Shown here one piece after another: positions 10,951 through 53,522 of a DNA stretch of 64,000 nt (position 1 is the first letter of the stretch; each line of letters opens with the position of its first letter). Source of the DNA: Enterobacteria phage vB_EcoM_IME281. The DNA lies in sequence record MH051913. One strand, given 5' to 3'. The notes beneath the pieces are model-generated. The model was not told the DNA's origin, did not search any database, and saw only the letters and a program-made list of their open reading frames with translations. A program made the position numbers and the translations under genes.

Positions 10951-10959
10951 GGAAACGCT

Positions 10960-11241
10960 ATGATGAATGATTACCGTAAAAATAAAGAGCTGGCTGAAGC
11001 AGTAAATGATATTCATAAAGCTATTCGTCGTGCTGAGGAAATTGCAGACAAATATGAGACTCATTTTAATATATACCCTGCTCGCGGTATGGGCGGTGAC
11101 TATTATTCTCCTGGCGCCCTGAAAGCCGACCTTGCTCACTGGGAAGAATACGGTGAAGCTCAGTACGCTATTGTAAACCAACATGATTACACTACCAGCC
11201 TAGAAAATGGTGGATGGGTATCCTCTTCTTCTGAATGTTAA
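10960..11241 (+). CDS. small protein, WVSSS-C tandem paralog 2 (93 aa)
   Basis: Ends GGWVSSSSEC; shares ADKY motif with paralog 1. Confidence 0.55.
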   Translation: MMNDYRKNKELAEAVNDIHKAIRRAEEIADKYETHFNIYPARGMGGDYYSPGALKADLAHWEEYGEAQYAIVNQHDYTTSLENGGWVSSSSEC

Positions 11242-18708: not shown

Positions 18709-18919
18709 ATTGACTATTGAAGGTTCTGAAGAAGTTCTGAAGATGTTTGTTGACTGGTTCCACGAGCAAGGCGAACAAGGCTTTATGGAATGTTGGGGCG
18801 GCGGCCAATGGAATGGTAAAGAAATTGTTTACCCGACCACGTATATCTCTGTTAGTGGTGGATATGATGGCCTTCGTTTTGTAGAATATGATATTGCATC
18901 TGATGAGGAAGTAAAATGA
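18701..18919 (+). CDS. hypothetical protein (72 aa)
   Basis: ORF track. Confidence 0.45.
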   Translation: MSKLTIEGSEEVLKMFVDWFHEQGEQGFMECWGGGQWNGKEIVYPTTYISVSGGYDGLRFVEYDIASDEEVK

Positions 18920-21284: not shown

Positions 21285-21487
21285 GCCAAGCCCGAATTCT
21301 TAAAACGGCTAAATGTGAAAAATGCGAATGGCCAGTAATCGCAGCTTTATGCAACGATGAAATGGAATGTGAATTTGATTACTGGTGGTACTGTTCTAAT
21401 AAAGGATGTTCTAATCATAAGGGTGAAGGTTTTCATTCTGGTTATTGTGAACATCCTAAATTTGTGCGATATGGTGAACCTAAATGA
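21260..21487 (+). CDS. Cys-rich small protein (75 aa)
   Basis: CEKCEW..CNDEMEC..CSNKGCSNH..C arrangement suggests a zinc-binding fold. Confidence 0.45.
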   Translation: MLKGTMVMSQARILKTAKCEKCEWPVIAALCNDEMECEFDYWWYCSNKGCSNHKGEGFHSGYCEHPKFVRYGEPK

Positions 21488-21657
21488 GTTTGAGTAAAGA
21501 ACAAAAAGATAAATTGTTTGAGCTTATCCATGAGCTCATGGAACTTAATACAGAATGTGAATTTGATAACTCTCTAGACTGGGATTGGCATGCTGGTGAA
21601 GAAGATGAGTTTTCTAAAAAGGAAAATGAATTAATTGCTTATGTAAATAGTCTTTAA
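21484..21657 (+). CDS. hypothetical small acidic protein (57 aa)
   Basis: Not in ORF track (<60 aa); ATGA overlap with upstream stop; ends 10 nt before tk. Confidence 0.4.
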   Translation: MSLSKEQKDKLFELIHELMELNTECEFDNSLDWDWHAGEEDEFSKKENELIAYVNSL

Positions 21658-26471: not shown

Positions 26472-27452
26472 ATGTTAACTATCAAAATCAACAAAGGTAT
26501 CTATCGCGGTAATGTAATCTCCGGTACGTTCATGAGTTCAGGTAAAACCTGGTTCCCTAATAAAATTCATGAATCCGAAGCTCACCTCGGTGATGGTAAG
26601 GTATTTGTACAGATTGATGGTGTTGAACGTGGTGTATGGGTGTTCAAATGTGACGTTGAAATGGAAGGTGCTGAAGCTCCTGCAATGGTTACTGAATCCG
26701 CTGAAGAAATGAAACATCGCATCAACAAACGTTTTAAAGTAATGAACATGATGACTAACGGAATCATCGATGGTAAAATTCGTTCCCTTATCATCTCTGG
26801 TGCCGCAGGTATTGGTAAAACTTATTCTTTGGATAAAGCATTACAGAATGCCCACGAAAATGAAACTATCGAATATAAATCAATCAACGGAAAGATTAGT
26901 GGAATCGGTCTTTACGAGCAGCTTTGGAATAACCGCGGCCCTAATAGTGTTCTTCTTATCGATGATGTTGATGTATTCTCTGATATGGATATCCTGAACC
27001 TGTTAAAAGCAGCATTGGATACCGGTGAAAAACGTAAGGTGTGCTGGAGCACTTCAAGTTCTTATCTCGATGATAAAAATATCGATAAAGAATTCGAATA
27101 CGAAGGCACCATCGTGTTCATCACCAACGTTGATATTGACCGTGAATTAGAGCGTGGAACTAAACTTGCTCCGCACCTCCAGGCTTTAGTATCTCGTTCA
27201 GTTTACTTAGACCTCGGAGTTCACTCTAACGAAGAGATTATGGTTCGTGTTGAAGACGTTATCCTGTCCACTGATATGATGCAAAATCGAGGTCTGACCG
27301 ATGCTGAGACTTATCAAGCACTGGCATGGATGAAGGCTAATGTATCTCGTCTTCGTAACGTATCATTACGTACAGCTCTTTATCTGGCGGACTTCATTGC
27401 CACCGATAAAAATGACTGGAACGAAATTGCTGAAGTTACACTTCTGAAATAA
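26472..27452 (+). CDS. AAA+ ATPase-like protein (326 aa)
   Basis: Walker A ISGAAGIGKTY, Walker B VLLIDDVD; M49 of track ORF with GGAG RBS. Confidence 0.6.
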   Translation: MLTIKINKGIYRGNVISGTFMSSGKTWFPNKIHESEAHLGDGKVFVQIDGVERGVWVFKCDVEMEGAEAPAMVTESAEEMKHRINKRFKVMNMMTNGIIDGKIRSLIISGAAGIGKTYSLDKALQNAHENETIEYKSINGKISGIGLYEQLWNNRGPNSVLLIDDVDVFSDMDILNLLKAALDTGEKRKVCWSTSSSYLDDKNIDKEFEYEGTIVFITNVDIDRELERGTKLAPHLQALVSRSVYLDLGVHSNEEIMVRVEDVILSTDMMQNRGLTDAETYQALAWMKANVSRLRNVSLRTALYLADFIATDKNDWNEIAEVTLLK

Positions 27453-30536: not shown

Positions 30537-31547
30537 ATGACCCGTACTGAATACATCAATGCCTTTACTAAGTATATCACTGACAATACCCCTCCATTAA
30601 CACCGTATGAGGTGATAGTTTCTAATATCAATAAATGGGTAGACCAAATTGATAAAGCATTATCCAATTGTTTCAAAGATGAAATCGAAAAGATTGCAGG
30701 CCGTTTGTTTATTTCTGATATCGTAGATACATTTAAAGGTTCTCGACTGCTTTCACGGTTGGTCAATAAGGATATCCTTTCAGAGTTTGGCAAAGAGAAA
30801 CACCCAGGTTCCAGCCACGTTGTTAGCTACCAATGGTTTGGTGATGTTTTAAAAAGCTATATCAAAATGAAAGGTACCGACCCTAAGGGCTTATTTCCTT
30901 TACGTTGGGCCGGTGAATTTAAGGCTAACTCCGCATTAATTCTAAAAGCAGCAACCAAAACCTTTGTAAAGGGTGATTGTCGTACTATCCACCCTATGGC
31001 TGATGGCATGATTAAAACAAACAACTATAAAGGGAAGGTGCTTATTTCTATTATTTGGTCGCCTAGTTGGAAACCTAAAGAAGTTGAAGTTTCGAAATAC
31101 CAAGATATTTCCTACAATACCCTGAATATTGTAGAACAAGCTTTAGCTTTGATGGATACAGTAGAGAAATATGAGATTCAAGAAATCAACCACCACTTAG
31201 GCTGGAAAGGATATGAAGTTTTAGTAACAGTTCGCGAAATCAAATGCCCTGTTCCAAAAACCGACGCTGAAATTTACCAAGAAAAATGTGAGGAAATTGT
31301 GAACACTGATAAAGAGCCTGCAACCTTAGAAGACTTGATTGATGAGCTGAATGGCCCAAGGCTACTGGCCTGTGCACCAATTACTAAATCCAAGCCGCCA
31401 GAAGTAGTTGCTCTGGAAAAAGCATATAAAGATGCCCTTGCTATCAACAAAAAACTGACCGGACAATATACTGCTGCCAAGAAACTTTGGGAAGAGTCTA
31501 CCAATCGTCTGGATAAACTGGAACAAGCCCTGGAGCTGTTGAAATGA
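30537..31547 (+). CDS. hypothetical protein (336 aa)
   Basis: M21 of track ORF (GTG 30477); GAGGAG RBS; C-terminal coiled coil. Confidence 0.5.
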   Translation: MTRTEYINAFTKYITDNTPPLTPYEVIVSNINKWVDQIDKALSNCFKDEIEKIAGRLFISDIVDTFKGSRLLSRLVNKDILSEFGKEKHPGSSHVVSYQWFGDVLKSYIKMKGTDPKGLFPLRWAGEFKANSALILKAATKTFVKGDCRTIHPMADGMIKTNNYKGKVLISIIWSPSWKPKEVEVSKYQDISYNTLNIVEQALALMDTVEKYEIQEINHHLGWKGYEVLVTVREIKCPVPKTDAEIYQEKCEEIVNTDKEPATLEDLIDELNGPRLLACAPITKSKPPEVVALEKAYKDALAINKKLTGQYTAAKKLWEESTNRLDKLEQALELLK

Positions 31548-31765
31548 AATACCAATTAGCTGACGATATTGACCAAACTATTCCTGATTGGAATGCTGTT
31601 ATTAAAATTGTCGAACGTCGTGAAAAAGCTTCTAAGAATGTTCCAAACTGTCCTATGTGTGGAACTGAACAGGTCCAGTTGGTTCAATGGCGCCATAATC
31701 CGCTTCAGTATAAATGCCGCCATTGTAAACACCGATTTGAGCGAGACGAAAATGGCAAAGCGTAA
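31544..31765 (+). CDS. zinc-ribbon small protein (73 aa)
   Basis: CPMCG..x15..CRHCKH two CxxC pairs. Confidence 0.45.
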
Positions 31766-31988
31766 AGAATATGTAGAGGCCGCCGATAAGGCGGTTCGTG
31801 AACTTACTCTGGCTTATTATAAAGAGCATGGTAAATTCCCGGACAGTTATTCAGTATTGAAATCTGCTTTAACTCGTTCATATAATAATATGCGTTCAGA
31901 AGTTTATGATATTATGGACAAACATAAAGAACAAACCGGTCAATACCCGGATTATACTGAGACCTTCAAACAAGTATTAGGAATTTAA
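31752..31988 (+). CDS. hypothetical protein (78 aa)
   Basis: M62 of track ORF 31569; start uncertain. Confidence 0.35.
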
Positions 31989-31989
31989 A

Positions 31990-32253
31990 ATGTTTAAAAT
32001 TTATGGTTATGATTCAAATATTCATCGTTGTGTTTTCTGTGATAATGCTAAACGTTTTTTGGATGTTAAGAAACAACCTTACGAATTCATCAACGTTATG
32101 CCAGAAAAAGGTGTGTTTGATGATGAGAAGATTGCTCAACTCCTGGCTGCACTTGGTCGCGAATCTCAAATCGGTTTGACTATGCCGCAAGTATTTGCCC
32201 CTGACGGAACTTCTATTGGTGGCTTCGACCAACTGCGAGAATATTTCAAATGA
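31990..32253 (+). CDS. nrdC: glutaredoxin/thioredoxin NrdC
   Basis: 87 aa; MFKIYGYDSNIHRCVFCDNAKR..LTMPQVFAPDG..GGFDQLREYFK close to recalled T4 NrdC; CVFC redox motif. Confidence 0.9.
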   Translation: MFKIYGYDSNIHRCVFCDNAKRFLDVKKQPYEFINVMPEKGVFDDEKIAQLLAALGRESQIGLTMPQVFAPDGTSIGGFDQLREYFK

Positions 32254-32411
32254 TTGAATTAATGTTGGGTATTTTGTATCTTATCATTGGCATTGGTTAT
32301 GCTAAGACCTTAGCTAAATTGGATGATTCCGGTGATTTTTGTGGGTGGTTGACGTCTATGATTTGTTGGCCTTTATTTCTGGTTGGTGCTTCATTCTGGA
32401 ACTTCAAATGA
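32250..32411 (+). CDS. small membrane protein (53 aa)
   Basis: Not in ORF track; ATGA overlaps at both ends; hydrophobic. Confidence 0.4.
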   Translation: MIELMLGILYLIIGIGYAKTLAKLDDSGDFCGWLTSMICWPLFLVGASFWNFK

Positions 32412-32584
32412 CCGAATTTGATACAGCTTATGAAACCTGCGCAGGAGAGTTTGATACTCCTGCCCCTAGTAAAGAAACCGTATTGGCAAATCTCCCGGTT
32501 TGGTTAAAAGAAGAAGCCAACGAATGGGGCTGGACTGATACCTGTGTACGTGACCAACTATTTGAATTTATGGCGGAGTTATGA
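32408..32584 (+). CDS. hypothetical acidic protein (58 aa)
   Basis: M24 of track ORF 32339; ATGA coupling. Confidence 0.4.
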   Translation: MTEFDTAYETCAGEFDTPAPSKETVLANLPVWLKEEANEWGWTDTCVRDQLFEFMAEL

Positions 32585-32889
32585 TTGAATTAAATGAACA
32601 GACTATTTTTCTAGGTGATGGTACTGAAGATGACCTGGAATATAAACTATACGAGTATATGGTTTGGTTGGCTAAAGCAGAAGGTATTGACTTTGTTGTG
32701 GCTAATCCATATGGCGAGAACACCGTTGTAATCGGTGGCACTGCTTATGAAGTCCAATGGCAATACGTTGGGCTTGAATCTGAAGAATTTGAAGAAGATG
32801 AACATGGTGATTGGCATCCAATCGGTCCTTGGTATTGGGAAGACGGTGAACCCGATTTTGAAGTATCAAGTTGGTGGCGTGACCATTAA
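32581..32889 (+). CDS. hypothetical acidic Trp-rich protein (102 aa)
   Basis: ORF track. Confidence 0.45.
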   Translation: MIELNEQTIFLGDGTEDDLEYKLYEYMVWLAKAEGIDFVVANPYGENTVVIGGTAYEVQWQYVGLESEEFEEDEHGDWHPIGPWYWEDGEPDFEVSSWWRDH

Positions 32890-33005
32890 GCCCTGGTATA
32901 CCGCTCGATGGGAAACCGTCGAGCCAGAGGAACCGGTTTACAACGATTCCGAAATAGATTATAATGAACCTTCAAACAATGATTTAATCGATATGGAGTT
33001 TGGAT

Positions 33006-33179
33006 ATGAGTACCAAAATTGAAGTTGGCCGTCATAAAGGCCGTCTGATTGAACATTCACTTTACGAATTGTCGGATTCCCGTAAGTTACCTGATGAAGA
33101 ATCTGCTTTAATTTTTGCTGCAGCCGATTATATTCATTGGCTTGAAGCTCAACTTCGCTTTTCCGATGAGGCCTTCTGA
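33006..33179 (+). CDS. hypothetical protein (57 aa)
   Basis: Not in ORF track; stop overlaps ATG of next gene. Confidence 0.35.
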   Translation: MSTKIEVGRHKGRLIEHSLYELSDSRKLPDEESALIFAAADYIHWLEAQLRFSDEAF

Positions 33180-33481
33180 TGAATTTATTTGAATTTGAAG
33201 GTAAAACTGTTCGTATTACTGAAGAAGATGTCGACCATTATGTTGACTGGCCTGAATTAAACGGCAATCGCGGTTTTGAGTCAGGCGAGCTCTGTGAAGG
33301 TGCTGAAGTTAAAATCTTGAAGGTGGAGATTTCTCCATGGGGCAATCCTGAAATCATTGGCGTAACTGCTATCGAATTCAATGGTAAGGTATACGAATAC
33401 ACTAAAGAAATGTTTGAAGATACTAAAGCTTCATTCTGGTGTTTTTGGACTAACGATGATAATGAATTTGAGGTCGCATGA
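33179..33481 (+). CDS. hypothetical protein (100 aa)
   Basis: ORF track. Confidence 0.45.
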   Translation: MNLFEFEGKTVRITEEDVDHYVDWPELNGNRGFESGELCEGAEVKILKVEISPWGNPEIIGVTAIEFNGKVYEYTKEMFEDTKASFWCFWTNDDNEFEVA

Positions 33482-33663
33482 AAACTGCATTAGTCTATAC
33501 CGAAAAGTTAAATGGTGACAAAGTCTGGAAACTTCTTATTAAAGGAAGTCCTACCGACCAGTTTATGGCCACCTGTATTGGATTGTATACTCGTCCTACT
33601 AAAAAGATGATTCGTCAATTTAAACGGTTACATCGCTCGTTTTATAGTACATTCGAAAAATAA
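33478..33663 (+). CDS. hypothetical basic protein (61 aa)
   Basis: ORF track. Confidence 0.4.
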   Translation: MKTALVYTEKLNGDKVWKLLIKGSPTDQFMATCIGLYTRPTKKMIRQFKRLHRSFYSTFEK

Positions 33664-33698
33664 TAAATACCCTTATCTAATACAGGTAAGGGTTTATT

Positions 33699-34172
33699 AT
33701 GTTGTTGACTGGTAAATTATACAAAGAAGAAAAACAAAAACTTTATGATGCACAGGATGGTAAGTGTTTAATCTGTACCCGTGAATTAAACCCTGATGTT
33801 CAAAGCAACCACCTTGACCATGACCACGAATTAAACGGGCCAAAAGCTGGTAAGGTTCGTGGGTTACTATGCAACCTGTGTAATGCCGCAGAAGGACAAA
33901 TGAAGCATAAGTTTAACCGCTCCGGTCTTAAAGGTCAAAACGTTGACTACCTCGAATGGTTAGAGAATTTGCTTGTCTATCTGAAATCTGATTATACTGA
34001 AAACAATATCCATCCTAATTTCGTTCCTGATAAAACCAAAGAGTTCAGTAGATTAGGTAAGGAAGAAATGATTGCTGAAATGCTTTCACACGGAATGACT
34101 TATAATGAATCTGACACAAAGAAACAAATGGTCGATTCATTTAAAAAACAACTGAGGAAATCGCTTAAATGA
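33699..34172 (+). CDS. 49: endonuclease VII (Holliday junction resolvase)
   Basis: 157 aa; MLLTGKLYKEEKQK..CLIC..HLDHDHELNGPKAGKVRGLLCNLCNAAEG near-identical to recalled T4 gp49. Confidence 0.9.
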   Translation: MLLTGKLYKEEKQKLYDAQDGKCLICTRELNPDVQSNHLDHDHELNGPKAGKVRGLLCNLCNAAEGQMKHKFNRSGLKGQNVDYLEWLENLLVYLKSDYTENNIHPNFVPDKTKEFSRLGKEEMIAEMLSHGMTYNESDTKKQMVDSFKKQLRKSLK

Positions 34173-34282
34173 TTAATTTTTATGCCTTAACCGAATCTAT
34201 GAACGATATTATCCGGCGCATGGGTGTTGAGTATCCTGCTCAATGGTTATTTGTTGTAACTAATACATGGACTATCGTATGA
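34169..34282 (+). CDS. hypothetical micro-protein (37 aa)
   Basis: Not in ORF track; GAGGA RBS; ATGA overlaps at both ends. Confidence 0.3.
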   Translation: MINFYALTESMNDIIRRMGVEYPAQWLFVVTNTWTIV

Positions 34283-34494
34283 ATAAATTTCGTAATGCTG
34301 CTTCTGATATCCTGGCCAATATTACATTTGTCCTGTTTATTGTGTGCCTTTTAATCCTGGTTATCCCATTTGGATTGCTGTTCGTTATTATTGGTGCATT
34401 GAGTACTGAAAAGGGTCTTGAAGAGTCTGAGTTCGACAAACGAATCCAGGCTGTTCATAGTGTTATTTCTAAAATGATGAAGGTGAAAGAATGA
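34279..34494 (+). CDS. small membrane protein (71 aa)
   Basis: M5 of track ORF 34267; central hydrophobic helix. Confidence 0.45.
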   Translation: MNKFRNAASDILANITFVLFIVCLLILVIPFGLLFVIIGALSTEKGLEESEFDKRIQAVHSVISKMMKVKE

Positions 34495-34787
34495 AACGTT
34501 TTGAAGAGTATGTAGCTTTGAATTGGACCGCATGGGACAAGTTCGGTAATGACTGGTACTTCCATGACTGTGACCTGAACCCTGAATTCTTTAAAGGTAA
34601 GGAAGACGACCTTAAGGACATCTATGCTCTGTCAGAGATTCATGGTATTAAACCAACGGTTTATTTCTCTTTTGATGACACGGGTTTCCTTATCCAGATT
34701 TACGTCCCATACGGAACTAATGAAGACGAAGTTATCAAAACTTGGGACTACCAAGGAGTTATTTCCTGTGGACCAAAAGTTAACTAA
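34491..34787 (+). CDS. hypothetical protein (98 aa)
   Basis: ORF track. Confidence 0.45.
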   Translation: MKRFEEYVALNWTAWDKFGNDWYFHDCDLNPEFFKGKEDDLKDIYALSEIHGIKPTVYFSFDDTGFLIQIYVPYGTNEDEVIKTWDYQGVISCGPKVN

Positions 34788-35085
34788 AATTGAGATTTAC
34801 GGTATCCCTGAGACAGTCATGCGCTGTCCAGGGTGCATTGCAGTTCTATCGCTCCTAAATTCCCTTTCTATCCAATATACTTTCTATCCTGTGATTAACC
34901 AGACGCCGTCAGGCGCAGTATATGATAAGCCTCTTATAGTATCATTGGCCAAACGTGCCGGCTTCAAGAGCTTAGCTATACGCTATCCTGTAATCTTTGT
35001 TGATAATAAGAAAATAGAAAATATTCCTGCCTTCAAATCCCTTTTGATTGAGCTTGGCTATGACCGAGATTTAATTGAAGATTAG
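34768..35085 (+). CDS. glutaredoxin-like protein (about 105 aa; GTG start inferred)
   Basis: IEIYGIPETVMRCPGCIAV CxxC motif like NrdC/NrdH N-terminus; AAGGAG 9 nt upstream of GTG 34768; ATG 34720 alternative. Confidence 0.4.
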   Translation: MDQKLTKIEIYGIPETVMRCPGCIAVLSLLNSLSIQYTFYPVINQTPSGAVYDKPLIVSLAKRAGFKSLAIRYPVIFVDNKKIENIPAFKSLLIELGYDRDLIED

Positions 35086-35086
35086 T

Positions 35087-35115
35087 GTTTACTTCCTCTC
35101 CTCACGTGTTATAGT
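35087..35115 (+). promoter_or_regulatory. early promoter/stem-loop cassette
   Basis: GTTTAC, 17 nt, TATAGT; CCTCACGTGT/ACACATGAGG inverted repeat. Confidence 0.55.
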
Positions 35116-35144
35116 CTATCCTATCAACACATGAGGAGAACATT

Positions 35145-35321
35145 ATGACTATCCAAGATAAAGAAATTAAAGTCAACCAGTATTATTCAATCAACGGCAA
35201 AGCTGTTCTAGTAACTGAAATATCTAGCCTAGACGTGTGGTATACCATAATTGACCTTAATATTAAAATGATTTGTGACCGTGGTGTATTTTGTTCGATA
35301 GCTAAGGAAATTAAATTATGA
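35145..35321 (+). CDS. hypothetical protein (58 aa)
   Basis: Not in ORF track; GAGGAG RBS after promoter cassette 35087-35115. Confidence 0.4.
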   Translation: MTIQDKEIKVNQYYSINGKAVLVTEISSLDVWYTIIDLNIKMICDRGVFCSIAKEIKL

Positions 35322-35572
35322 GCCTGAAATTGCATTCAATGAAAAATGTCATCACCCTTAATCTGGATGATGAGCGCCTAATTTTTCTCACCGTCACTGA
35401 TAAGAATATTGAAATTGCAAATGGTCCTAAGACTTATTGCTGTCCTGTTAAGAATTGGAAGCATGTAACCTTTTTGACCCTGACCGACCGTCTGAAAGAC
35501 CTTAAGTTGGATTTGGATATCAAAGACATCCAGTACATTAAAAACCTTATTGGATACAAACTGTTGAGGTAA
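35318..35572 (+). CDS. hypothetical protein (84 aa)
   Basis: ORF track. Confidence 0.45.
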   Translation: MSLKLHSMKNVITLNLDDERLIFLTVTDKNIEIANGPKTYCCPVKNWKHVTFLTLTDRLKDLKLDLDIKDIQYIKNLIGYKLLR

Positions 35573-35574
35573 CT

Positions 35575-35868
35575 ATGGGTAAAACTATCCGTCGTAAAGA
35601 ATTGCCATCTAGAGATTTTAATTGCATTGCTAGACGTAAAGCACCTGATGGCGTATCGGAAGAAACTTTGAATGAAAATATCTTCCGGTCAGATAAATGG
35701 AAACGCTTTAGCGGCGTTGATTCTGAAGTTAAGAATGAAATGAACCGCCAACTTCGTAAAGAAGTGAGAAAACTGAAAAAAGATGTTTACAGCGACGATG
35801 AACCTGATTACAATACTTCTCATCGAGTTGCAAAACGTAAATCAAACGAATGCTATCGTTACAGCTGA
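35575..35868 (+). CDS. hypothetical basic protein (97 aa)
   Basis: ORF track. Confidence 0.45.
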   Translation: MGKTIRRKELPSRDFNCIARRKAPDGVSEETLNENIFRSDKWKRFSGVDSEVKNEMNRQLRKEVRKLKKDVYSDDEPDYNTSHRVAKRKSNECYRYS

Positions 35869-35875
35869 GGAAAAT

Positions 35876-36007
35876 ATGAATATCAAACGTATGCTTTTTA
35901 AACAAGGATTATACACTTTAAATGTTACTCCAAAAGGCGATACGACTAAGTGGTCAGTAAATGACTGGATTAAATTTATTGATGAAAATGGCAACTGGAA
36001 AATTTAA
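35876..36007 (+). CDS. hypothetical micro-protein (43 aa)
   Basis: M32 of track ORF 35783; GAGGAAAA RBS. Confidence 0.35.
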   Translation: MNIKRMLFKQGLYTLNVTPKGDTTKWSVNDWIKFIDENGNWKI

Positions 36008-36208
36008 ATGAATCCTGAATCTAAATTATCACAACGAATTGCTGAAGCCCGTCGTCAGTTCTTTGAAAATATGATAGCTCAAGGTATTGATGACGAAGTT
36101 TTTCTAAACTGGTTTTGGAATAACAAATATTCAAAATGCGCAGGAGCAATATTAATATCAGCCGCAATGATGTATGAAGGTTGGAAAGGTGCATTAGCAC
36201 AAAAATAG
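36008..36208 (+). CDS. hypothetical protein (66 aa)
   Basis: ORF track. Confidence 0.4.
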   Translation: MNPESKLSQRIAEARRQFFENMIAQGIDDEVFLNWFWNNKYSKCAGAILISAAMMYEGWKGALAQK

Positions 36209-36237
36209 TTTACAAACTCTTGGGACCAGAGTATAAT
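36208..36237 (+). promoter_or_regulatory. early promoter with hairpin
   Basis: GTTTAC, 18 nt, TATAAT; GGACCA/TGGTCC inverted repeat. Confidence 0.55.
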
Positions 36238-36277
36238 GGTCCTATGGATTATAAATTTTTAAACTGAGGAAATTATT

Positions 36278-36607
36278 ATGTCACAAGCTATTAAAAACGT
36301 ACTGAACTCTTTCGCTTTCGATAAAGTTAATGAACTGATGAAAACTGGCTTTGTAACTCCTCAGGTTCTTGACCAATGGGTTGCTGAACTGTTACCAATC
36401 ATGCACTCTAAAGACCAAAAAATTGGTAAGAACGGTATTCGTGAAATCCTGGTTCAATATATTCTCGACGAGTTTGATGTGGCCGCCTTTGGTGTCGAAT
36501 CTAAAGCTTGGCAGCCAGGTGAAATCACAGACAAAACCATCCGTCGTATGAAGAATCAACGTAAGAAAAAATTCGTTGACCTGAAAATTGTTAAGGCAGC
36601 TAAATGA
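36278..36607 (+). CDS. hypothetical protein (109 aa)
   Basis: GAGGAAA RBS; cassette promoter 36208-36237. Confidence 0.5.
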   Translation: MSQAIKNVLNSFAFDKVNELMKTGFVTPQVLDQWVAELLPIMHSKDQKIGKNGIREILVQYILDEFDVAAFGVESKAWQPGEITDKTIRRMKNQRKKKFVDLKIVKAAK

Positions 36608-36852
36608 GTAATTTGCCTGAAGATGTATCGGTTATAATAGTCCTTAAAGCTTTAGCCGGTTTCCAACGTACCCCTATGATGAATAATAGTGAAACCATTA
36701 TAAAAGCGGCTAATATGCTAAGTGGAAGTCATCGCGATTTCAGGATATTTCCTATAAGCTCTAAGACCACTTATATGAAAATGCCCGATCCTAAAATAGC
36801 TTGGGATGAAGGCATGACATTAAATGAATTTGAGGATTATTTAAATGATTAA
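36604..36852 (+). CDS. hypothetical protein (82 aa)
   Basis: ORF track; ATGA coupling. Confidence 0.45.
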   Translation: MSNLPEDVSVIIVLKALAGFQRTPMMNNSETIIKAANMLSGSHRDFRIFPISSKTTYMKMPDPKIAWDEGMTLNEFEDYLND

Positions 36853-37111
36853 AATAAAACTCTCTAATTACGATAAAAACTTGGAAATGATTGCTATGAA
36901 AGAAGAACTCCTGAATGATGTCCGCTTTACAGGTTATGCAGTCCAATTTAATGGTGATGGGGCTCTCCAGATTGAAGGTGGCCACTTTATTATCGAATAT
37001 GAATTTAAACGGTACTGGCTATACGCTAAAGATGAAGTTGGCGGTATTGATTACGTCGATGAGTTTGATAATCTTGATGATGCATTAGAAGGAGCTCGAT
37101 TCCTACAATGA
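36845..37111 (+). CDS. hypothetical protein (88 aa)
   Basis: ORF track. Confidence 0.45.
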   Translation: MIKIKLSNYDKNLEMIAMKEELLNDVRFTGYAVQFNGDGALQIEGGHFIIEYEFKRYWLYAKDEVGGIDYVDEFDNLDDALEGARFLQ

Positions 37112-37371
37112 AACCCATATCCACCACCCTCGCTTATGAAGGTCTCGGATTTTTCTTAATAGATAACTGTATGGATGTTGAGTTTGTTTGTGGTGAGACT
37201 TCTTTAGTATGGAAGTCTCATATTTCCAAATACAACCATCGGGATTATCCGGAACTTTTTAAAGAATTTTGCGGATATATGTCCGAACATGGATGTACTG
37301 ATACAATTTCTTATCCCGAGTTCATACAAATCCTTGAAACAGTATTTAAGGCTTATTGCTTACTCCGTTGA
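37108..37371 (+). CDS. hypothetical protein (87 aa)
   Basis: ORF track. Confidence 0.45.
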   Translation: MKPISTTLAYEGLGFFLIDNCMDVEFVCGETSLVWKSHISKYNHRDYPELFKEFCGYMSEHGCTDTISYPEFIQILETVFKAYCLLR

Positions 37372-37398
37372 TGCTTTAAACGGGTCTCCAAATACTAT
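37372..37398 (+). promoter_or_regulatory. candidate MotA-dependent middle promoter for gene 55
   Basis: MotA-box-like TGCTTTA, 14-nt gap, TACTAT (TATAAT also at 37401-37406). Confidence 0.4.
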
Positions 37399-37437
37399 GA
37401 TATAATAGACCTATGATTTGAGTTATCTGAGGTAACA

Positions 37438-37995
37438 ATGACCGAAATTAAACTGACTAAAAATAACTATGTAAATAATAAGGAGCTTCTGAAAGCCATT
37501 ACCCAGTGGAAAACAGAACTCCGAGAAAATACCGACCCTAATAAAATAGTTCGTCAGAACGACGTTATCGGCTTGGCTATTATGCTCATTGCTGAAGGCC
37601 TTTCTAAGCGTTTCAACTTCTCCGGATATACCCAATCTTGGAAGCAAGAAATGATTGCTGATGGAATCGAAGCCTCTATTAAAGGTCTTCATAACTTCGA
37701 CGAAACAAAATACGACAACCCACATGCATATATCACTATGGCTTGTTTTAATGCCTTTGTTCAGCGTATCAAGAAAGAACGTAAAGAAATGGCAAAGAAA
37801 TACAGCTACTTCGTCCATAACGTTTATGACGCCAATGACGACGACATGGTAGGTATCGCAGATGAAACTTTTATCCAGGATATTTACGACAAAATGACTC
37901 AGTATGAAACCTCTTTAGTTAAAGCGCTAGGGTCTGATAAGAGCGCCGAATCTAAAGTTGGTGAGCTGGATTTTTTATATGGAACTCAAGATTAA
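37438..37995 (+). CDS. 55: late transcription sigma factor gp55
   Basis: 185 aa; [62 protein letters not shown] matches recalled T4 gp55. Confidence 0.9.
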
Positions 37996-38206
37996 CCTGG
38001 TAGGCCTTTTAGAAGAAGTAGATGGAGAGTATTCGGCAATTCCTTATGTTCTTAAAATGTATCTTAAGGATATTGCCAAGCTTCCTATTGTAATAGACCC
38101 AAAACACCCTGATTCGGTAGAAATTAAAGCTGAAAAAGGAACATTAACTTATAACTATCACGTTACCGACGAAGATTTTTATATAAAACTGAATTACAAG
38201 GATTAA
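37979..38206 (+). CDS. hypothetical protein (75 aa)
   Basis: M8 of track ORF 37958; weak RBS. Confidence 0.35.
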
Positions 38207-38207
38207 T

Positions 38208-38519
38208 ATGCAAAGCACCGACATTTCTCAATTGACCGAAGAGCAAATTGAAGAAGCCCAGAAGCGTTTAGAAGAGAATAATGCTAAAGAAGCCGCTTCT
38301 CAAGCTGCCAAAATTCTTAAAAAGAATGCCCGTGAAATTAAGCGTCTTAATACACACGCACAGGGCGCTGTTCTCGAAAACAATTTCGAAGCTTACAAAT
38401 ATGCTATAATTAAATTACGTGGTATTTACCGTCAACCAACTACTGACGAAATCGTTAGAGTTATGTGGGAAACTACGCGTAAACAGATTTGGGAAATTAT
38501 CAATGGCGCTAGTAAATAA
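38208..38519 (+). CDS. hypothetical protein (103 aa)
   Basis: ORF track. Confidence 0.45.
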   Translation: MQSTDISQLTEEQIEEAQKRLEENNAKEAASQAAKILKKNAREIKRLNTHAQGAVLENNFEAYKYAIIKLRGIYRQPTTDEIVRVMWETTRKQIWEIINGASK

Positions 38520-38703
38520 ACCCTTTAAACGGCTTCTTATTGGAGCCGCCTTCAGACTTCGCTCATACGGTAATATTTGTATTAAGCAGACTGAAACCGA
38601 ATATAAAATGGTTGGGCAGTATTCCGATGAAATTTTTCGGATTGAGCCTGTAGCCAAGGTTTGGGTTGATTCACATCAACTTAAGAAGTGGTGGCAACGA
38701 TGA
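38503..38703 (+). CDS. hypothetical basic protein (66 aa)
   Basis: M29 of track ORF 38419. Confidence 0.3.
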   Translation: MALVNKPFKRLLIGAAFRLRSYGNICIKQTETEYKMVGQYSDEIFRIEPVAKVWVDSHQLKKWWQR

Positions 38704-38803
38704 TAACATGGACAGGTGGCTAATGAAAGACGAACATCCGGATTTTTAAGCTATGAATGACGAATACGAAAAAGTTTAAGAGGTTTTATGAATGACGAAT
38801 TCG

Positions 38804-38965
38804 ATGGATTTTGATAAGATTAAATCTGACAAAAATGAGATGATACTTAAATTTGAAGCTGCTCGTATTAAAGCGGAAAATGAAGGTACTATTACCTATA
38901 AGCCTATCAAGTTCAGGTCTTCTCATGAACCTCTGTATGGCGTATTAATTGGTAAAGGAGCTTAG
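38804..38965 (+). CDS. hypothetical protein (53 aa)
   Basis: Not in ORF track; follows three tandem 8-codon mini-ORFs; stop lies inside terminator hairpin. Confidence 0.35.
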   Translation: MDFDKIKSDKNEMILKFEAARIKAENEGTITYKPIKFRSSHEPLYGVLIGKGA

Positions 38966-38976
38966 GCTCCTTTTTT
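38957..38976 (+). terminator. rho-independent terminator
   Basis: GGAGC-TTAG-GCTCC plus T6. Confidence 0.6.
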
Positions 38977-39019
38977 GCTTTATATTCGGATGATAAAATG
39001 AACCAACTGAGGAGAACAT

Positions 39020-39163
39020 ATGGAATTACTTTTAGGATATGTCGTGTTATTCATGGCATTCTACACATTCACACGAGCCTGTTGGATAGGATTCTTTTCT
39101 ACTCCTGATGGGTTCATCTCAATAATTTTATTTTGCATTGCGATAACGGTGCTCGGCTTATGA
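39020..39163 (+). CDS. small membrane protein (47 aa)
   Basis: Not in ORF track; GAGGAGAA RBS; stop overlaps gp47 ATG (ATGA); hydrophobic. Confidence 0.4.
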   Translation: MELLLGYVVLFMAFYTFTRACWIGFFSTPDGFISIILFCIAITVLGL

Positions 39164-40182
39164 AAATATTAAACACTGGTGACTGGCACCTTGGAGTGAA
39201 GGCCGATGATGTGTGGGTACAAAATATCCAACGTCAAGGTATCCAAGACGCTATCAATTATTCTAAAGCAAATGGTATTACCGTGTGGATTCAATACGGT
39301 GATATCTTTGACGTTCGTAAAGCAATTACCCATAAGTGTATGGAATTCGCTCGCGAAATCTCTGATTTGCTTAAAGCTAATGGCATTACCATGTATACCA
39401 TTGTTGGTAATCATGATATGCACTACAAAAATACCTTGACTCCTAACGCAGCTTCTGAAGTTCTGGGTAAATATGACCATATCAAGGTTATTGAGAAACC
39501 TACTACGGTTAACTTTGATGGCACCGAAATTGATTTGATTCCATGGATGTGTGAAGAAAACACTACTGATATCATGGACCATATCAAAAATACCACAGCA
39601 GATTTCTGTATTGGACATTGGGAATTAAATGGTTTCTATTTCTATAAAGGAATGAAATCTCATGGTTTAGAACCTGATTTCCTTAAAAAGTATAAGCAAG
39701 TTTGGTCAGGTCACTTCCACACTATTTCTGATGCAGCAAACGTCAAGTACATTGGTACTCCATGGACCCTTACTGCAGGTGATGAGAACGACCCTCGTGG
39801 TTTCTGGATTTTCGATACCGAAACTCATAAAATGGATTTCATCATTAATGAAACCTGTTGGCATCGTAAGATTCATTATCCTAACGAGACTATCGATTAC
39901 AAAGATTTTACAAATATCGCAGTTCGTGTTATAGTCGATAAAATCGATGACGGTCTTACTAAGTTCGAATCAGAGCTTGAAAAGGTTGTTCACTCTTTAC
40001 GTATTGTGTCTAAGGTAGATAATAGTGTTGATATCGATGATTCTGAAGAGGAAGACGAAGTTAAATCCCTCTTGGATATGATGTATGATTATATCGATGC
40101 CCTTCCTGATGGCCACACTGAAGCCGATGTTAAAGCCCTTAAGACTATGGCTGCACAACTTTATAATGAGGTTACACGATGA
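39160..40182 (+). CDS. 47: recombination endonuclease subunit gp47 (Mre11-like)
   Basis: 340 aa; MKILNTGDWHLGVK..GDIFD..GNHD phosphoesterase motifs; near-collinear with recalled T4 gp47. Confidence 0.9.
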   Translation: MKILNTGDWHLGVKADDVWVQNIQRQGIQDAINYSKANGITVWIQYGDIFDVRKAITHKCMEFAREISDLLKANGITMYTIVGNHDMHYKNTLTPNAASEVLGKYDHIKVIEKPTTVNFDGTEIDLIPWMCEENTTDIMDHIKNTTADFCIGHWELNGFYFYKGMKSHGLEPDFLKKYKQVWSGHFHTISDAANVKYIGTPWTLTAGDENDPRGFWIFDTETHKMDFIINETCWHRKIHYPNETIDYKDFTNIAVRVIVDKIDDGLTKFESELEKVVHSLRIVSKVDNSVDIDDSEEEDEVKSLLDMMYDYIDALPDGHTEADVKALKTMAAQLYNEVTR

Positions 40183-42111: not shown

Positions 42112-42127
42112 GCCTCTTATTGAGGCT
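42111..42127. terminator. hairpin between convergent genes (possible bidirectional terminator)
   Basis: AGCCTC-TTATT-GAGGCT; T-rich flank on plus strand only. Confidence 0.4.
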
Positions 42128-42833
42128 TCATTTTACAGTTATCGAAATGCCAACGATTCATATTACCGGAATTCCCTTGTTTACCACAATGAGGGCATTC
42201 TACCTTCTTTTCTGATTTTTTGCGTCCGTTAGGATTTTTCTTACAAAAAACTTTATGAGCCGCAATAACACAGGATTTTCCTGAAAGGCCACAGAATTCA
42301 CATTCCACAATTTTATGGACCATGTTTTCTAGGCCTTTCTTTATTTTTAATTTTTGCTCTTCAGATATAGAGCGGTCTACTTTATTAGGGCCTTTAGGAC
42401 AGTTATCGAAATGCCATCTGTTCATATTGCCTACCAATCCAGTTTTGCCACAGTGTGGACAGGTAACTCTAGGCTTTTTTAAAGCGGAAATTGACATTTT
42501 CTTTCTGGTTTCTTCCGAGAATTCTTTATCCTTTTGGGCTTCTGAATTCTTACGACGAAGCCATCCAAATAATTTATTTTTAGACCTATCAGCTTTTGGT
42601 GAGCTAACTGTCATCATTCTTGCTGCATAGACTAACGATGCGTTATCTGGATGGATTTTAACTAACAACTGGTGAGCCAAGTAATGTTCTTCAGGTGTTA
42701 AGTCTACCAAGTTTAAAGCGTCATCCGTCCCACCCATGCATTGTGGTATAATGTGATGACGTTCTTTATAGGTAGTTAAATTTCTATTAACTGCTCGTTG
42801 AATAAGCTTTTCGTATATTGATTTATAATTCAT
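42117..42833 (-). mobile_element. free-standing HNH homing endonuclease gene (238 aa)
   Basis: Only opposite-strand gene in the replication block; MNYKSIYEKL start typical of T4 Mob/Seg enzymes; HNH core HHIIPQCMGGTDDALNLVDLTPEEHYLAH; two C-terminal repeats CPHCGK..GNMNRWHFDNC; inserted where T4 has only 45.2. Confidence 0.75.
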
Positions 42834-42876
42834 TATCAAATCCTTATTTGACACAGCGACCGATAAAGATATTTAT

Positions 42877-46523: not shown

Positions 46524-49235
46524 ATGCAAGAATTCTATTTGACAGTCGAACAAATCGGTGATAATATTCTCGAACGTTACATCGATAAAAATGGTAACGA
46601 ACGTAGTCGTGAAGTTCCTTACAAGCCTACAATGTTTATGCATGCTAACCCAGAGCAAGCCGTAAAATATATTGACATCTACGGTAAGGGCTGTGTTAAG
46701 AAAGAATTCGATTCAATGCGCGATGCTTCTCAGTGGATGAAGCGCATGGACGATATGGGTCTCGAAGCCCTTGGTATGGACGACTATAAATTAGCCTATT
46801 TGTCTGATACCTATCGTAAAGAAATCAAGTATGATTCTTCCAAGATTCGTATTGCTAACTTCGACATCGAGGTAACATCCCCTGATGGATTCCCTGAACC
46901 TGCCCAGGCTAAACATCCTATCGATGCCATTACTCACTACGACTCGATTGATGATAAATTCTATGTATTTGACCTTTTAGTTTCACCTTACGGTACGGTC
47001 GAAGAGTGGTCGATTAAAATCGCTGAGAAACTCCAAGACGAAGGTGGTGACGAAGTTCCACAAGAAATCATTGACAAAATCGTTTATCTTCCGTTTAATT
47101 CTGAAGAAGAAATGATGCTTGAGTATCTGAATTTCTGGCAACAGAAAACTCCTGTGATTTTGACTGGATGGAACGTTGAATCATTTGACGTGCCATACGT
47201 TTATAACCGTCTGAAAAATCTGTTTGGTGAGAACACTGCTAAGCGATTAAGCCCACATCGTAAGACTCGTGTTAAAGTTATCGAGAATATGTACGGTGTT
47301 CGCGAAATTATTACACTGTTCGGTATCTCTGTTCTGGATTATATCGACCTTTATAAAAAATTCAGCTTTACTAACCAGCCTTCTTATTCTCTGGATTATG
47401 TTTCTGAATATGAATTGAAAGTAGGTAAGTTGAAATATGATGGTCCTATCTCCAAGTTACGTGAGACGAACCACCAACGATATATTTCCTATAACATTAT
47501 CGACGTATATCGTGTTGTGCAGATTGATATGAAACGCCAGTTCATTCTTCTTAGTCTGGACATGGGTTACTATGCCAAGATGCAGATTCAGTCGGTGTTC
47601 AGTCCAATTAAGACTTGGGACGCTATTATCTTTAATAGCCTTAAAGAACAGGGTAAAGTTATTCCTCAGGCCAAATCGCATGCGGTTCAACCTTATCCAG
47701 GTGCTTTCGTTAAGGAACCTATTCCTAACGCGTACAAATATGTAATGAGTTTCGACCTTACATCTCTGTACCCGAGTATCATTCGACAAGTGAATATAAG
47801 CCCAGAGACCATCGCAGGCACATTCGCCAACGCACCGATACATGAATATATTGCCGGAACTGCTCCGCGTCCTAGCGACACCTACAGTTGCTCTCCTAAC
47901 GGCATGATGTACTATAAAGACCGTGACGGTGTGATTCCTACAGAAATCACGAAGGTGTTCTTACAGCGTAAAGAACATAAAGGTTATATGCTTGCAGCTC
48001 AACGTAATGGTGAGTTAATTAAAGAAGCATTAGAAAATCCTAATCTGTCTGTTGATAGTCCACTGGATATCGATTATCGTTTCGACTTCTCTGACGAAAT
48101 CAAAGCTCAGATTAAAAAATTGTCAGCATCTTCTTTAAAAGAAATGTTGTTCAAAGCCGAACGTACTGAAGTCGCAGGTATGACTGCTCAGATTAACCGT
48201 AAGTTGCTTATCAACTCCCTTTATGGTGCACTTGGTAACGTATGGTTCCGTTACTATGACCTCAGGAACGCAACTGCAATCACATTGTTTGGTCAAATGG
48301 CCCTCCAATGGATTGAACGTAAGGTTAACGAATATCTGAATGGCGTGTGCAAGACTGAAAACCAGAAGTTCGTGCTCTATGGTGATACTGACTCCATTTA
48401 TGTTAAGGCTGACGCAATCATCAATAAAGTAGGCGAAGACAAATTCCGTGATACCAACCATTGGGTAGACTTCTTAGATAAATTTGCACGTGAACGTATG
48501 GAACCGGCTATTGATGCAGGCTTCCGTGAGATGTGCGAATACATGAACAACAAACAGCACTTGATGTTCATGGACCGAGAAGCTATCGCTGGTCCTCCGC
48601 TTGGTTCTAAAGGTCTTGGTGGATTCTGGACAGGCAAGAAACGTTATGCACTGAACGTTTGGGACATGGAAGGTACTCGTTATGCCGAACCACACTTGAA
48701 AATCATGGGTCTCGAAACTCAGAAATCAAGTACGCCTAAAGCGGTTCAGAAAGCACTGAAAGAATGTATCCGTCGTATGCTTCAAGAAGGCGAGGCTTCT
48801 TTGCAAGAATATTTCAAACAGTTTAATAAGGAATTTAACGAATTAGACTATGTAAGCATTGCTGCAGTATCCAGTGCTAACAACATCGAGAAATATAATG
48901 AAGGCGGATTCCCTGGTTCTAAATGCCCGTACCACATCAAAGGTTGCTTAGCTTACATGCGTGCTTCTGCTGGTGATTTGACTATGCCTCGTATCGTTGA
49001 TGGTGAAAAGGTATATGTACTGCCACTTAAAGAAGGCAACCCGTTCGGTGAAGCTTGTATGGCATGGCCGTCAGGTATTGAACTTCCGATTCAGATTCGT
49101 GACCAAGTCCTCCGTTGGATGGACTACAACGTACTGTTCCAAAAGACCTTTATCAAACCTCTGACCGGTTTTACTGAGTCTGCTAAAATCGACTACGAGA
49201 AAAAAGCAACATTATTTGACATGTTTGACTTTTAA
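46524..49235 (+). CDS. 43: DNA polymerase gp43 (family B)
   Basis: 903 aa from ATG 46524 (track started at TTG 46464); exonuclease FDIEV, pol motifs SLYPSI and YGDTDS; near-collinear with recalled RB69/T4 gp43. Confidence 0.97.
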   Translation: MQEFYLTVEQIGDNILERYIDKNGNERSREVPYKPTMFMHANPEQAVKYIDIYGKGCVKKEFDSMRDASQWMKRMDDMGLEALGMDDYKLAYLSDTYRKEIKYDSSKIRIANFDIEVTSPDGFPEPAQAKHPIDAITHYDSIDDKFYVFDLLVSPYGTVEEWSIKIAEKLQDEGGDEVPQEIIDKIVYLPFNSEEEMMLEYLNFWQQKTPVILTGWNVESFDVPYVYNRLKNLFGENTAKRLSPHRKTRVKVIENMYGVREIITLFGISVLDYIDLYKKFSFTNQPSYSLDYVSEYELKVGKLKYDGPISKLRETNHQRYISYNIIDVYRVVQIDMKRQFILLSLDMGYYAKMQIQSVFSPIKTWDAIIFNSLKEQGKVIPQAKSHAVQPYPGAFVKEPIPNAYKYVMSFDLTSLYPSIIRQVNISPETIAGTFANAPIHEYIAGTAPRPSDTYSCSPNGMMYYKDRDGVIPTEITKVFLQRKEHKGYMLAAQRNGELIKEALENPNLSVDSPLDIDYRFDFSDEIKAQIKKLSASSLKEMLFKAERTEVAGMTAQINRKLLINSLYGALGNVWFRYYDLRNATAITLFGQMALQWIERKVNEYLNGVCKTENQKFVLYGDTDSIYVKADAIINKVGEDKFRDTNHWVDFLDKFARERMEPAIDAGFREMCEYMNNKQHLMFMDREAIAGPPLGSKGLGGFWTGKKRYALNVWDMEGTRYAEPHLKIMGLETQKSSTPKAVQKALKECIRRMLQEGEASLQEYFKQFNKEFNELDYVSIAAVSSANNIEKYNEGGFPGSKCPYHIKGCLAYMRASAGDLTMPRIVDGEKVYVLPLKEGNPFGEACMAWPSGIELPIQIRDQVLRWMDYNVLFQKTFIKPLTGFTESAKIDYEKKATLFDMFDF

Positions 49236-49297: not shown

Positions 49298-49534
49298 ATG
49301 GAAGCTTTAATCGTTAGTGCTGGTGTTTTAGGATTCGGTTCTCTGGTTATTATGTTCATTGGTTACTTTTTACCATGGATTCTGGCCCTTCTGCGAGGCA
49401 CTCGTAGCAATGTCGGAATCTTCTTCCTTAATCTCCTGTTAGGGTGGACGATGATTGGTTGGGTAGTGGCTTTAATCTGGGCTATCGTCGCTGAACGTAA
49501 ATCAAACGCACAAATCATTATCGTTAAACAATGA
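49298..49534 (+). CDS. imm: superinfection immunity protein Imm-like (78 aa)
   Basis: Two TM helices; immediately downstream of gene 43 as T4 imm; positional. Confidence 0.5.
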   Translation: MEALIVSAGVLGFGSLVIMFIGYFLPWILALLRGTRSNVGIFFLNLLLGWTMIGWVVALIWAIVAERKSNAQIIIVKQ

Positions 49535-49668
49535 AGATAATTATTTTATTTCTTATAATGGCTGCCTTTACCGTTTATTGGGCAGTGGCAATTCCTCCAA
49601 TGATTCCAACATTAATCATGGGATGGATTATTCTTATAGCACAAATTAAGTATAACTGTTTTAATTGA
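49531..49668 (+). CDS. small membrane protein (45 aa)
   Basis: Not in ORF track; ATGA overlap with imm stop; hydrophobic. Confidence 0.4.
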   Translation: MKIIILFLIMAAFTVYWAVAIPPMIPTLIMGWIILIAQIKYNCFN

Positions 49669-52827: not shown

Positions 52828-53522
52828 AACACATTACCGCTGTTAGTTTTGAAAATGCATTTAAACAAATGAACGAAGAAATCCTGGAAGCTCCACAGTT
52901 TGCAGTTGATTCTCGTATCGGACGTTGTTATGAAATTGGTTCTGCTTCGGTAGAAGTACTGGATGCAAGCACCTATAAATTCACCGACCCACGTATCAAT
53001 CGTATTAGTTATGAATATGCCGAATCCTTTTGGAAATTTATGATTTCTGGTGGTACTGACGCTGCCGAAGCATTTAAGGAATACCCTAATGTTGCTAAGT
53101 TCATTGATAAGCCGAAAAGTGATGTATTGCCTGCAAACTTCAACACTTTCTATGGACCTCGAATTGTGGCCCAACTCCCAGCCCTACTTAAAGAGCTTAA
53201 AGAAAAGGCTAACTCGCGAAGAGTTGTGTTCCAGATTCTCCAAGAACAAGACCAAGCCCTCCTTGATTCTGACGAATCCTTAGAATATCCTTGCACCGAT
53301 TCGGTAACGTATTATATTCGTGACGGACGTTTGTATGCACACACCCATATGCGTTCACAAAACTGCGCCGTTGTTATGCAGCTGGATTTCTATCTGCAGG
53401 GTAAACTGATGGCATTTATTGCTGAACAGTGTGGTGTCGGTTTAGGTACATATTCCCACACCATGGTAAGTGCACACGTGTTTGAACGTGATTTTGACTA
53501 CGTCCGAGGTTTCCTGAAATGA
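52824..53522 (+). CDS. 42: thymidylate synthase-fold pyrimidine hydroxymethylase (probable dCMP hydroxymethylase)
   Basis: YPCT active-site Cys context and HMRSQNCAVVMQLDFY..HTMVSAHVF align with thymidylate synthase family (MYQRSCD..NIASY..DTHLY); occupies gene 42 position. Confidence 0.55.
   Translation: MKHITAVSFENAFKQMNEEILEAPQFAVDSRIGRCYEIGSASVEVLDASTYKFTDPRINRISYEYAESFWKFMISGGTDAAEAFKEYPNVAKFIDKPKSDVLPANFNTFYGPRIVAQLPALLKELKEKANSRRVVFQILQEQDQALLDSDESLEYPCTDSVTYYIRDGRLYAHTHMRSQNCAVVMQLDFYLQGKLMAFIAEQCGVGLGTYSHTMVSAHVFERDFDYVRGFLK

Follow-up and report, generated by a model that had tools for sequence, protein, structure and literature searches.

Short open reading frames (ORFs) that fit exactly between the longer genes of a phage raise the question of whether they are genes themselves or open only by accident. 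The question is posed here for seven frames of fewer than 60 amino acids (aa) in a window of 64,000 nucleotides (nt) from Enterobacteria phage vB_EcoM_IME281 (sequence record MH051913), which a preliminary description had taken for translationally coupled genes. Judged by sequence identity, the window comes from a T4-like Dhakavirus genome of the JS98 group: positions 32000-39500 match Escherichia phage UP19 (Dhakavirus, Tevenvirinae) over their full length at 99.2% identity, and the same segment is 96% identical to JS98. Nearly all genes of the window are carried by the plus strand. Five of the frames, named here by their first positions (32250, 33006, 34169, 35145, and 39020), lie in a T4-type accessory region with the order nrdC - 49.x - pin - 49 - 55.x - 55 - a-gt.x - 47, while the outlying frames 21484 and 49531 adjoin tdk and imm, respectively. 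All seven are present as described, each running from an ATG to a TGA in a whole number of codons, and very probably they are true genes for small proteins, belonging to the early and middle accessory clusters of this phage. They are also already known and ordinary for T4-like phages. The exact sequences of all seven are public proteins with accessions (for example in vB_EcoM_IME281, JS98, JS10, and UP19), and their reported absence from the ORF track reflects a list that stopped at 60 aa rather than a gap in public annotation.

Support for this conclusion comes mainly from comparison with related loci, of which 45 were fetched around gene 49 (gp49 identity 99% to 51%), 5 around tdk, and 25 around imm, with T4 (NC_000866.4) and several other genera added. 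With one exception, every homologous copy of the frames in these loci and in the GenBank records sampled is an intact ORF of similar length in which insertions and deletions (indels) come in multiples of three (12/12 for 32250, 14/14 for 35145, and 13/13 for 39020; 5/5, 6/6, and 5/5 in further sets). Intactness with in-frame indels only holds across relatives from 99% to 65% gp49 identity, and the frames are kept in this way down to 40-50% amino-acid identity (47% for 32250). Interruption of the frames in close relatives, which the preliminary description had offered as grounds for abandoning the idea, was looked for and encountered in a single copy, discussed below, and the idea withstood this test. 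The ratio of non-synonymous to synonymous substitution (dN/dS; pooled Nei-Gojobori estimates, proposed frame against the two shifted frames) ranges from 0.21 to 0.37 in the proposed frame and from 0.59 to 1.94 in the shifted frames, with accepted neighboring genes at 0.09-0.35. Values for individual frames include 0.29 (21484), 0.36 (32250), 0.21 (34169), 0.30 (35145), and 0.22 (39020). Single most-divergent pairs, used to avoid counting related sequences repeatedly, were subjected to a one-sided Fisher test for a lower proportion of non-synonymous than of synonymous differences (pN<pS), with p ranging from 0.005 to 2e-8. In comparison with T4 these values are 2e-8 for 39020, 1e-5 for 49531, 8e-4 for 21484, and 0.005 for 35145; frame 32250 gives 2e-5 against locus L039, 33006 gives 3e-4 against locus L049, and 34169 gives 0.001 against VR7 and 0.004 against G53.

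Other lines of evidence agree with the comparative data. A 3-periodic Markov model trained on the long genes of the window favors the proposed phase in six of the seven frames. All seven match PHROG families (E = 3e-16 to 7e-43) and two match Pfam families (DUF7438 and Inhibitor_I24); a search of NCBIfam returned no match for any of them. Four have counterparts among the named genes of T4 (tk.2, 55.6, 47.1, and, for the C-terminal module only, pin), and full-length similarity together with a shared neighborhood places three in the orthologue groups of gp47.1, gp55.6, and Tk.2 (80%, 57%, and 54% identity). In proteomics of T4 by liquid chromatography and mass spectrometry, gp55.6 was detected and classed with the early proteins, and Tk.2 and Pin with the middle proteins produced from early RNA (PMC9697503, tables S2 and S4). 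The claim that these are real genes rather than chance frames is thus upheld by intact frames, by purifying selection, and by T4 homologues detected as protein.

Several points weigh on the other side. Evidence of translation is indirect, coming by way of the T4 homologues of three frames. For T4 47.1 early RNA was seen and the protein was not detected (PMC9697503), small size being a limit on detection according to the authors of that study, and the ORF downstream of imm lies outside the study's gene list. Nothing specific came up in the literature under the names 47.1, 55.6, and tk.1, or on small proteins in ribosome profiling of T4. Frame 39020 failed the Markov test, its phase not being the compositionally preferred one, an outcome expected for a very hydrophobic peptide. 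Frame 34169 is confined to three closely allied genera. The dN/dS values derive from protein-guided alignments of homologues selected by tblastn, which biases them downward, and several of the sets hold only 6-7 distinct sequences. The sole interrupted copy is a frameshifted homologue of 32250 in Esco_phi_B-01, which is unannotated and comes from a record flagged UNVERIFIED_ORG.

The preliminary description rested its case on overlapping stop and start codons. An overlap of this kind, either -4 (ATGA) or -1 (TGATG), is found on at least one side of all seven frames (Table 1), and on both sides of only two; for 34169 the downstream overlap holds if gene 55.8 starts at 34279, the start conserved in VR7 and G53. 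TAATG coupling had also been claimed, whereas the -1 junction at 33006-33179 reads TGATG. When ORFs of 35 aa or more are considered, -4 junctions number 36 on the plus strand and 1 on the minus strand, with a mean of 1.3 in shuffled sequences; for -1 junctions the figures are 12, 0, and 0.3. The -4 spacing is therefore 36 times as frequent on the coding strand as on the other, and the overlap junction is a real, genome-wide habit of the coding strand, not particular to the micro-ORFs. Among prokaryotes in general the -4 spacing is the most frequent one, and it is efficient for coupling (PMC12548453). Some -4 junctions are accidents, produced where an ATG falls inside a long gene (47572-47745 and 26569-26712 are examples). 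Because -4 junctions also arise by chance, the precise fit proves less than the preliminary description assumed.

Table 1. Coordinates and main attributes of the seven frames (first seven rows) and of other features in the window. In the junction columns negative values are bases of overlap and positive values are bases of gap.
Feature	Position	Strand	Upstream junction	Downstream junction	Remarks
Tk.2 homologue	21484-21657	+	-4 (zinc-binding-domain gene)	+9 (tdk)	57 aa, acidic, soluble; 54% identity to T4 tk.2
Two-hydrophobic-segment protein	32250-32411	+	-4 (nrdC)	-4 (32408 gene)	53 aa; phrog_6756, E=2e-28
Mini-Pin	33006-33179	+	-17 (49.1)	-1 (TGATG)	57 aa; C-terminal module of PinA, the Lon-protease inhibitor of T4, as a separate protein
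Post-gene-49 protein	34169-34282	+	-4 (gene 49)	-4 (55.8 start at 34279)	37 aa; phrog_3350, E=8e-24
gp55.6 homologue	35145-35321	+	+59	-4	58 aa; 57% identity to T4 55.6; phrog_2283, E=2e-33
gp47.1 homologue	39020-39163	+	+54	-4 (gene 47)	47 aa; 80% identity to T4 47.1; phrog_6693, E=1e-30
imm-downstream protein	49531-49668	+	-4 (imm)	+7	45 aa; phrog_3610
Unlisted gene	32408-32584	+	-4 (32250 frame)		58 aa; follows the 32250 frame as the next -4 link of the chain and precedes 49.3; both UP19 and JS98 annotate it; PHROG matches
gp49.1 homologue	32879-33022	+		-17 (mini-Pin start)	47 aa, GTG start; phrog_2382, E=8.5e-28; named 49.1 in JS98
PinA N-terminal-like ORF	33179-33481	+	-1 (TGATG)		100 aa; follows the C-terminal module
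Promoter-like site	35088-35115	+			TTTACT, 16-nt spacer, TG, TATAGT; upstream of the 55.6 homologue; weak, consensus level only
gp55.4 homologue	35876-36007	+			43 aa; full-length match to Pfam DUF5484 (119.9 bits); both UP19 and JS98 annotate it
a-gt.2	38792-38965				57 aa; sub-60-aa gene outside the earlier list
Terminator-like hairpin	38954-38973	+			8-pair stem with 4 G-C pairs, then a T-run; between a-gt.2 and the 47.1 homologue; consensus level only

From about 31544 to 33663, that is from nrdC.2 to the DUF7279 gene, no intergenic spacer exceeds 1 nt over some ten cistrons. The frames are most likely ordinary small accessory genes within long polycistronic transcription units of the early and middle classes. 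In these runs a stop codon overlaps the start that follows (ATGA or TGATG), so that a terminating ribosome could initiate the next cistron without separate loading. At the -4 and -1 spacings, a terminating ribosome may reinitiate at the overlapping ATG or unfold structure around it (PMC12548453). Translational coupling of the micro-ORFs is plausible in view of their spacing. Like the coupled cistrons reviewed in PMC12548453 (-4, NTGA; -1, TGATG or TAATG), they are co-directional and use the two commonest spacings; unlike those cistrons, two of the seven start after a spacer of 54-59 nt with a strong ribosome-binding site. Coupling is probably needed for 32250 and 49531, because their Shine-Dalgarno sequences are weak or missing (49531 has none of its own), and is probably dispensable for 35145 and 39020, where it would be least needed because each follows such a spacer and has its own strong GAGGAG site. 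The products of four of the genes, namely the Tk.2 homologue, mini-Pin, the 37-aa protein following gene 49, and the gp55.6 homologue, would be soluble small proteins.

Three other explanations of these frames can be weighed against the view that they are protein-coding genes. One is that they encode nothing, having stayed open by chance in the intergenic spacers of a genome rich in A and T. Frames that remain open for 37-58 codons from out-of-frame ATGs are indeed not rare in the window (8-17%, an upper bound only, as this null is inflated by read-through into downstream genes), and some of the -4 couplings are accidents of the kind noted above within long genes. Chance frames are nevertheless hard to reconcile with indels confined to multiples of three at such low amino-acid identities, with an excess of synonymous over non-synonymous changes that is found in the proposed frame only, with the conservation of specific motifs, and with the detection of T4 homologues as proteins. 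This explanation is already refuted by the conservation tests and deserves practically no credence. Another possibility is that the act of translation is what matters, each frame serving as a relay that delivers ribosomes to the next gene while the peptide itself is functionless. The start of the next gene is overlapped by 4 or 1 bases in five of the seven cases, frames 32250 and 49531 lie without a good Shine-Dalgarno sequence inside uninterrupted chains, and five of the seven have no known function. A relay, however, would conserve length and junctions and not amino acids. What is found instead is pN well below pS, lengths that shift by in-frame indels while motifs persist, and invariant motifs in 39020 (RACWxGFFSTPDGFIS), 49531 (PxMIPT...CFN), 32250 (IGIGYxKTL), and 35145 (CDRxVF..AKEIK), so that functionless relays are very improbable.

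The frames might also include decaying fragments, with mini-Pin a pinA truncated after rearrangement and 34169 a gene damaged by a 5-codon deletion. Mini-Pin does span only positions 88-136 of the PinA profile, the region is mosaic and one relative (locus L006) lacks mini-Pin altogether, and the 34169 frame of both the window and JS98 carries the 5-aa deletion. Yet the stand-alone copies of mini-Pin have a pN/pS of 0.13, with 9, 6, and 25 variable sites at the first, second, and third codon positions (p=6e-8); they are under strong purifying selection and therefore are not decaying remnants. A stand-alone C-terminal module is also carried by the distant lineage L049, and in 34169 the deletion is in frame and the remaining protein is conserved. 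Decay is very improbable as well.

The preliminary description counted four strongly hydrophobic products, of which only three reach transmembrane grade when scored by the best 19-residue Kyte-Doolittle mean: 1.79 for 32250, 2.14 for 39020, and 2.65 for 49531, against 1.24 for 35145 and 0.63 for the only mildly hydrophobic 34169. Two hydrophobic blocks are visible in the alignments of each of the three, as in small two-pass inner-membrane proteins, and they are predicted to be two-helix membrane hairpin micro-proteins. The 32250 family has 71 phage records and no T4 homologue, and its conserved motifs read IGIGYxKTL...WPxxLxxASxWNF. Partial tblastn matches (residues 18-53) had suggested that the frame is truncated in some relatives, a suspicion dismissed as an alignment artefact when inspection revealed intact 55-aa ORFs. 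In Esco_phi_B-01 (L083, OP292222.1) the frameshifted homologue lies at about 340-500 and the next, 58-aa gene is missing. The 39020 product shares with T4 gp47.1 (NP_813808.1, a hypothetical predicted membrane protein) its length of 46-47 aa, its position, and the 4-base overlap into gene 47, with no substantive difference between the two; the conserved RACWxGFFSTPDGFIS sequence forms its loop.

The 49531 family has 478 phage records in at least five genera, and every inspected copy overlaps the upstream gene by 4 bases. Intact homologues of 47-49 aa with the -4 junction are found in T4, G50, PEi26, CHI14, and ZX14. The T4 homologue, of 49 aa, is located between imm and gene 42 on the minus strand (positions 2227-2376 of the NC_000866.4 locus, L080) and bears the UniRef name 'Uncharacterized 5.6 kDa protein in Gp42-imm intergenic region', although it is absent from the feature tables of NC_000866.4 and AF158101.6 and from many other Tequatrovirus records. 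It is 44-49% identical to the product of 49531, with a common PxMIPT...LQxKYxC(F/I)N motif, and both overlap imm by 4 bases. A 5-kDa protein that went undetected in the T4 proteomics paper, P39249, was suspected to be this ORF and proved to be Ndd.4. A functional partnership with Imm, suggested by the conserved ATGA junction, was also considered and rejected as a general rule, the upstream gene being a different one (210 aa) in Kanagawavirus and Winklervirus.

Mini-Pin belongs to the Pfam family Inhibitor_I24 (PF10465; positions 88-136, 28.0 bits against a cut-off of 27 bits), matches phrog_9092 (E=7e-43) and positions 94-145 of the 146 of phrog_2167, and is 41% identical to residues 102-145 of T4 PinA (BLASTP, E=3e-9). 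The full-length PinA architecture comprises both modules in about 140-160 aa, and of these mini-Pin has the C-terminal one only. T4-type phages, like the majority of other relatives, have an undivided pinA of 142-161 aa, flanked by 49.1 and 49. Here the adjoining ORF at 33179-33481 matches the N-terminal part of the same profiles (Inhibitor_I24 positions 3-74, 27.6 bits; phrog_2167 positions 5-75) and residues 9-79 of T4 PinA at 27% identity, and the DUF7279 ORF that follows it resembles the final 16 residues of T4 PinA at its own C-terminus. The alignments indicate that the modules of pinA are separately encoded in this phage, with their order swapped (33006-33663). The slot after mini-Pin is a variable cassette among close relatives: it is taken up by the N-terminal-like ORF in JS98, IME341, and the window, is empty in locus L005, and contains an unrelated 89-aa ORF in L016 and L017. 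T4 PinA (P07068) and mini-Pin share the C-terminal module, including the sequence AAxxYIxWLExQLxFSD, and the same start relative to 49.1. They differ in that mini-Pin has 57 aa as opposed to the 142-161 aa of full-length PinA, and in that the N-terminal-like module is separate and is missing in several Dhakaviruses.

Structural information on the interaction of PinA with Lon was lacking according to a 2021 paper (PMC8835725), and a phmmer search of PDB chain sequences with mini-Pin returned no match, so that a solved structure related to the C-terminal module of PinA did not turn up. A speculative and rather unlikely idea is that mini-Pin is a self-sufficient minimal Lon inhibitor, in which the C-terminal helix module would engage Lon while the N-terminal module would be an exchangeable accessory. 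If so, the accessory module would be one that can be separately encoded, replaced by an unrelated cassette, or lost, and phages of the JS98 group would represent a natural domain dissection of PinA. In a protein collection clustered at 90% identity, mini-Pin (33006-33176) is grouped under a 392-aa representative described as TolB, a Tol biopolymer transport component, which looks like a clustering artefact.

The remaining three products are those of 21484, 34169, and 35145. Frame 21484 matches phrog_653 and Pfam DUF7438 (35.9 bits against a cut-off of 25 bits), and resembles T4 Tk.2 (P13307) in its acidity, its length of about 60 aa, and its location in the tk.4-tk cluster. It differs from Tk.2 in a divergent central third with indels and in its place, the slot adjoining tdk that is held by tk.1 in T4. 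Identification as tk.1, suggested by position alone, was rejected in favor of the sequence match to tk.2. Frame 21484 and tk.1 do show a weak match (29% identity, E=0.06; T4 region L080 36347-36717), which hints that tk.1 and tk.2 may be paralogues. Frame 34169 keeps its location behind gene 49 in Dhakavirus as well as in Gaprivervirus VR7 and Mosigvirus G53; its family is found in 58 records of these three genera, has no T4 counterpart, and conserves the motif MGxEYPxxWLF. The product of 35145 conserves the motif DKEIK...CDRxVF..AKEIK, and T4 gp55.6 (P07078) is like it in length (58-60 aa) and in its membership of the 55.x cluster. The T4 gene overlaps 55.5 directly, whereas 35145 overlaps a DUF7290 gene by 4 bases. 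A phmmer search of PDB chain sequences with the gp55.6 homologue gave no match. Promoter-like sites such as the one upstream of 35145 are no more numerous in the region than expected from shuffles.

All seven entries in the earlier list of micro-ORFs hold, but the list is incomplete, as other sub-60-aa genes are found in the same stretch (Table 1). Among them the 58-aa gene at 32408-32584 has a dN/dS of 0.35. A further unlisted sub-60-aa gene at 62900-63067 has a PHROG or Pfam match or is annotated in relatives, and more -4-coupled short frames occur in the window at 18743-18919, 14132-14272, 53349-53522, and 10784-10963. Between gene 46 and 45.2 the minus strand carries a lone 245-aa ORF (42117-42854), a free-standing homing endonuclease (phrog_655, E=1.6e-69), at which the local GC skew goes negative; the equivalent site in UP19 has a homing endonuclease on the plus strand.

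The same small genes are inconsistently annotated between near-identical genomes. UP19 lacks annotation of 47.1 and 49.1 while JS98 annotates both, and JS98 lacks the 32250 and 34169 frames while UP19 annotates both. In JS98 and JS10 the ORF downstream of imm is annotated from an internal Met (36 aa in place of 45), and in JS98 the annotated start of 55.8 lies twelve bases ahead of the one that VR7 and G53 conserve. Because the UP19, JS98, and T4 reference records each omit some of these genes, omics studies that rely on them are blind to the products. Beyond such annotation hygiene the finding is of little importance, dense runs of small overlapping accessory genes having long been known in T4-like phages. 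Among the products, the three predicted two-helix membrane micro-proteins and the stand-alone PinA module would be reasonable, if unremarkable, candidates for functional study.

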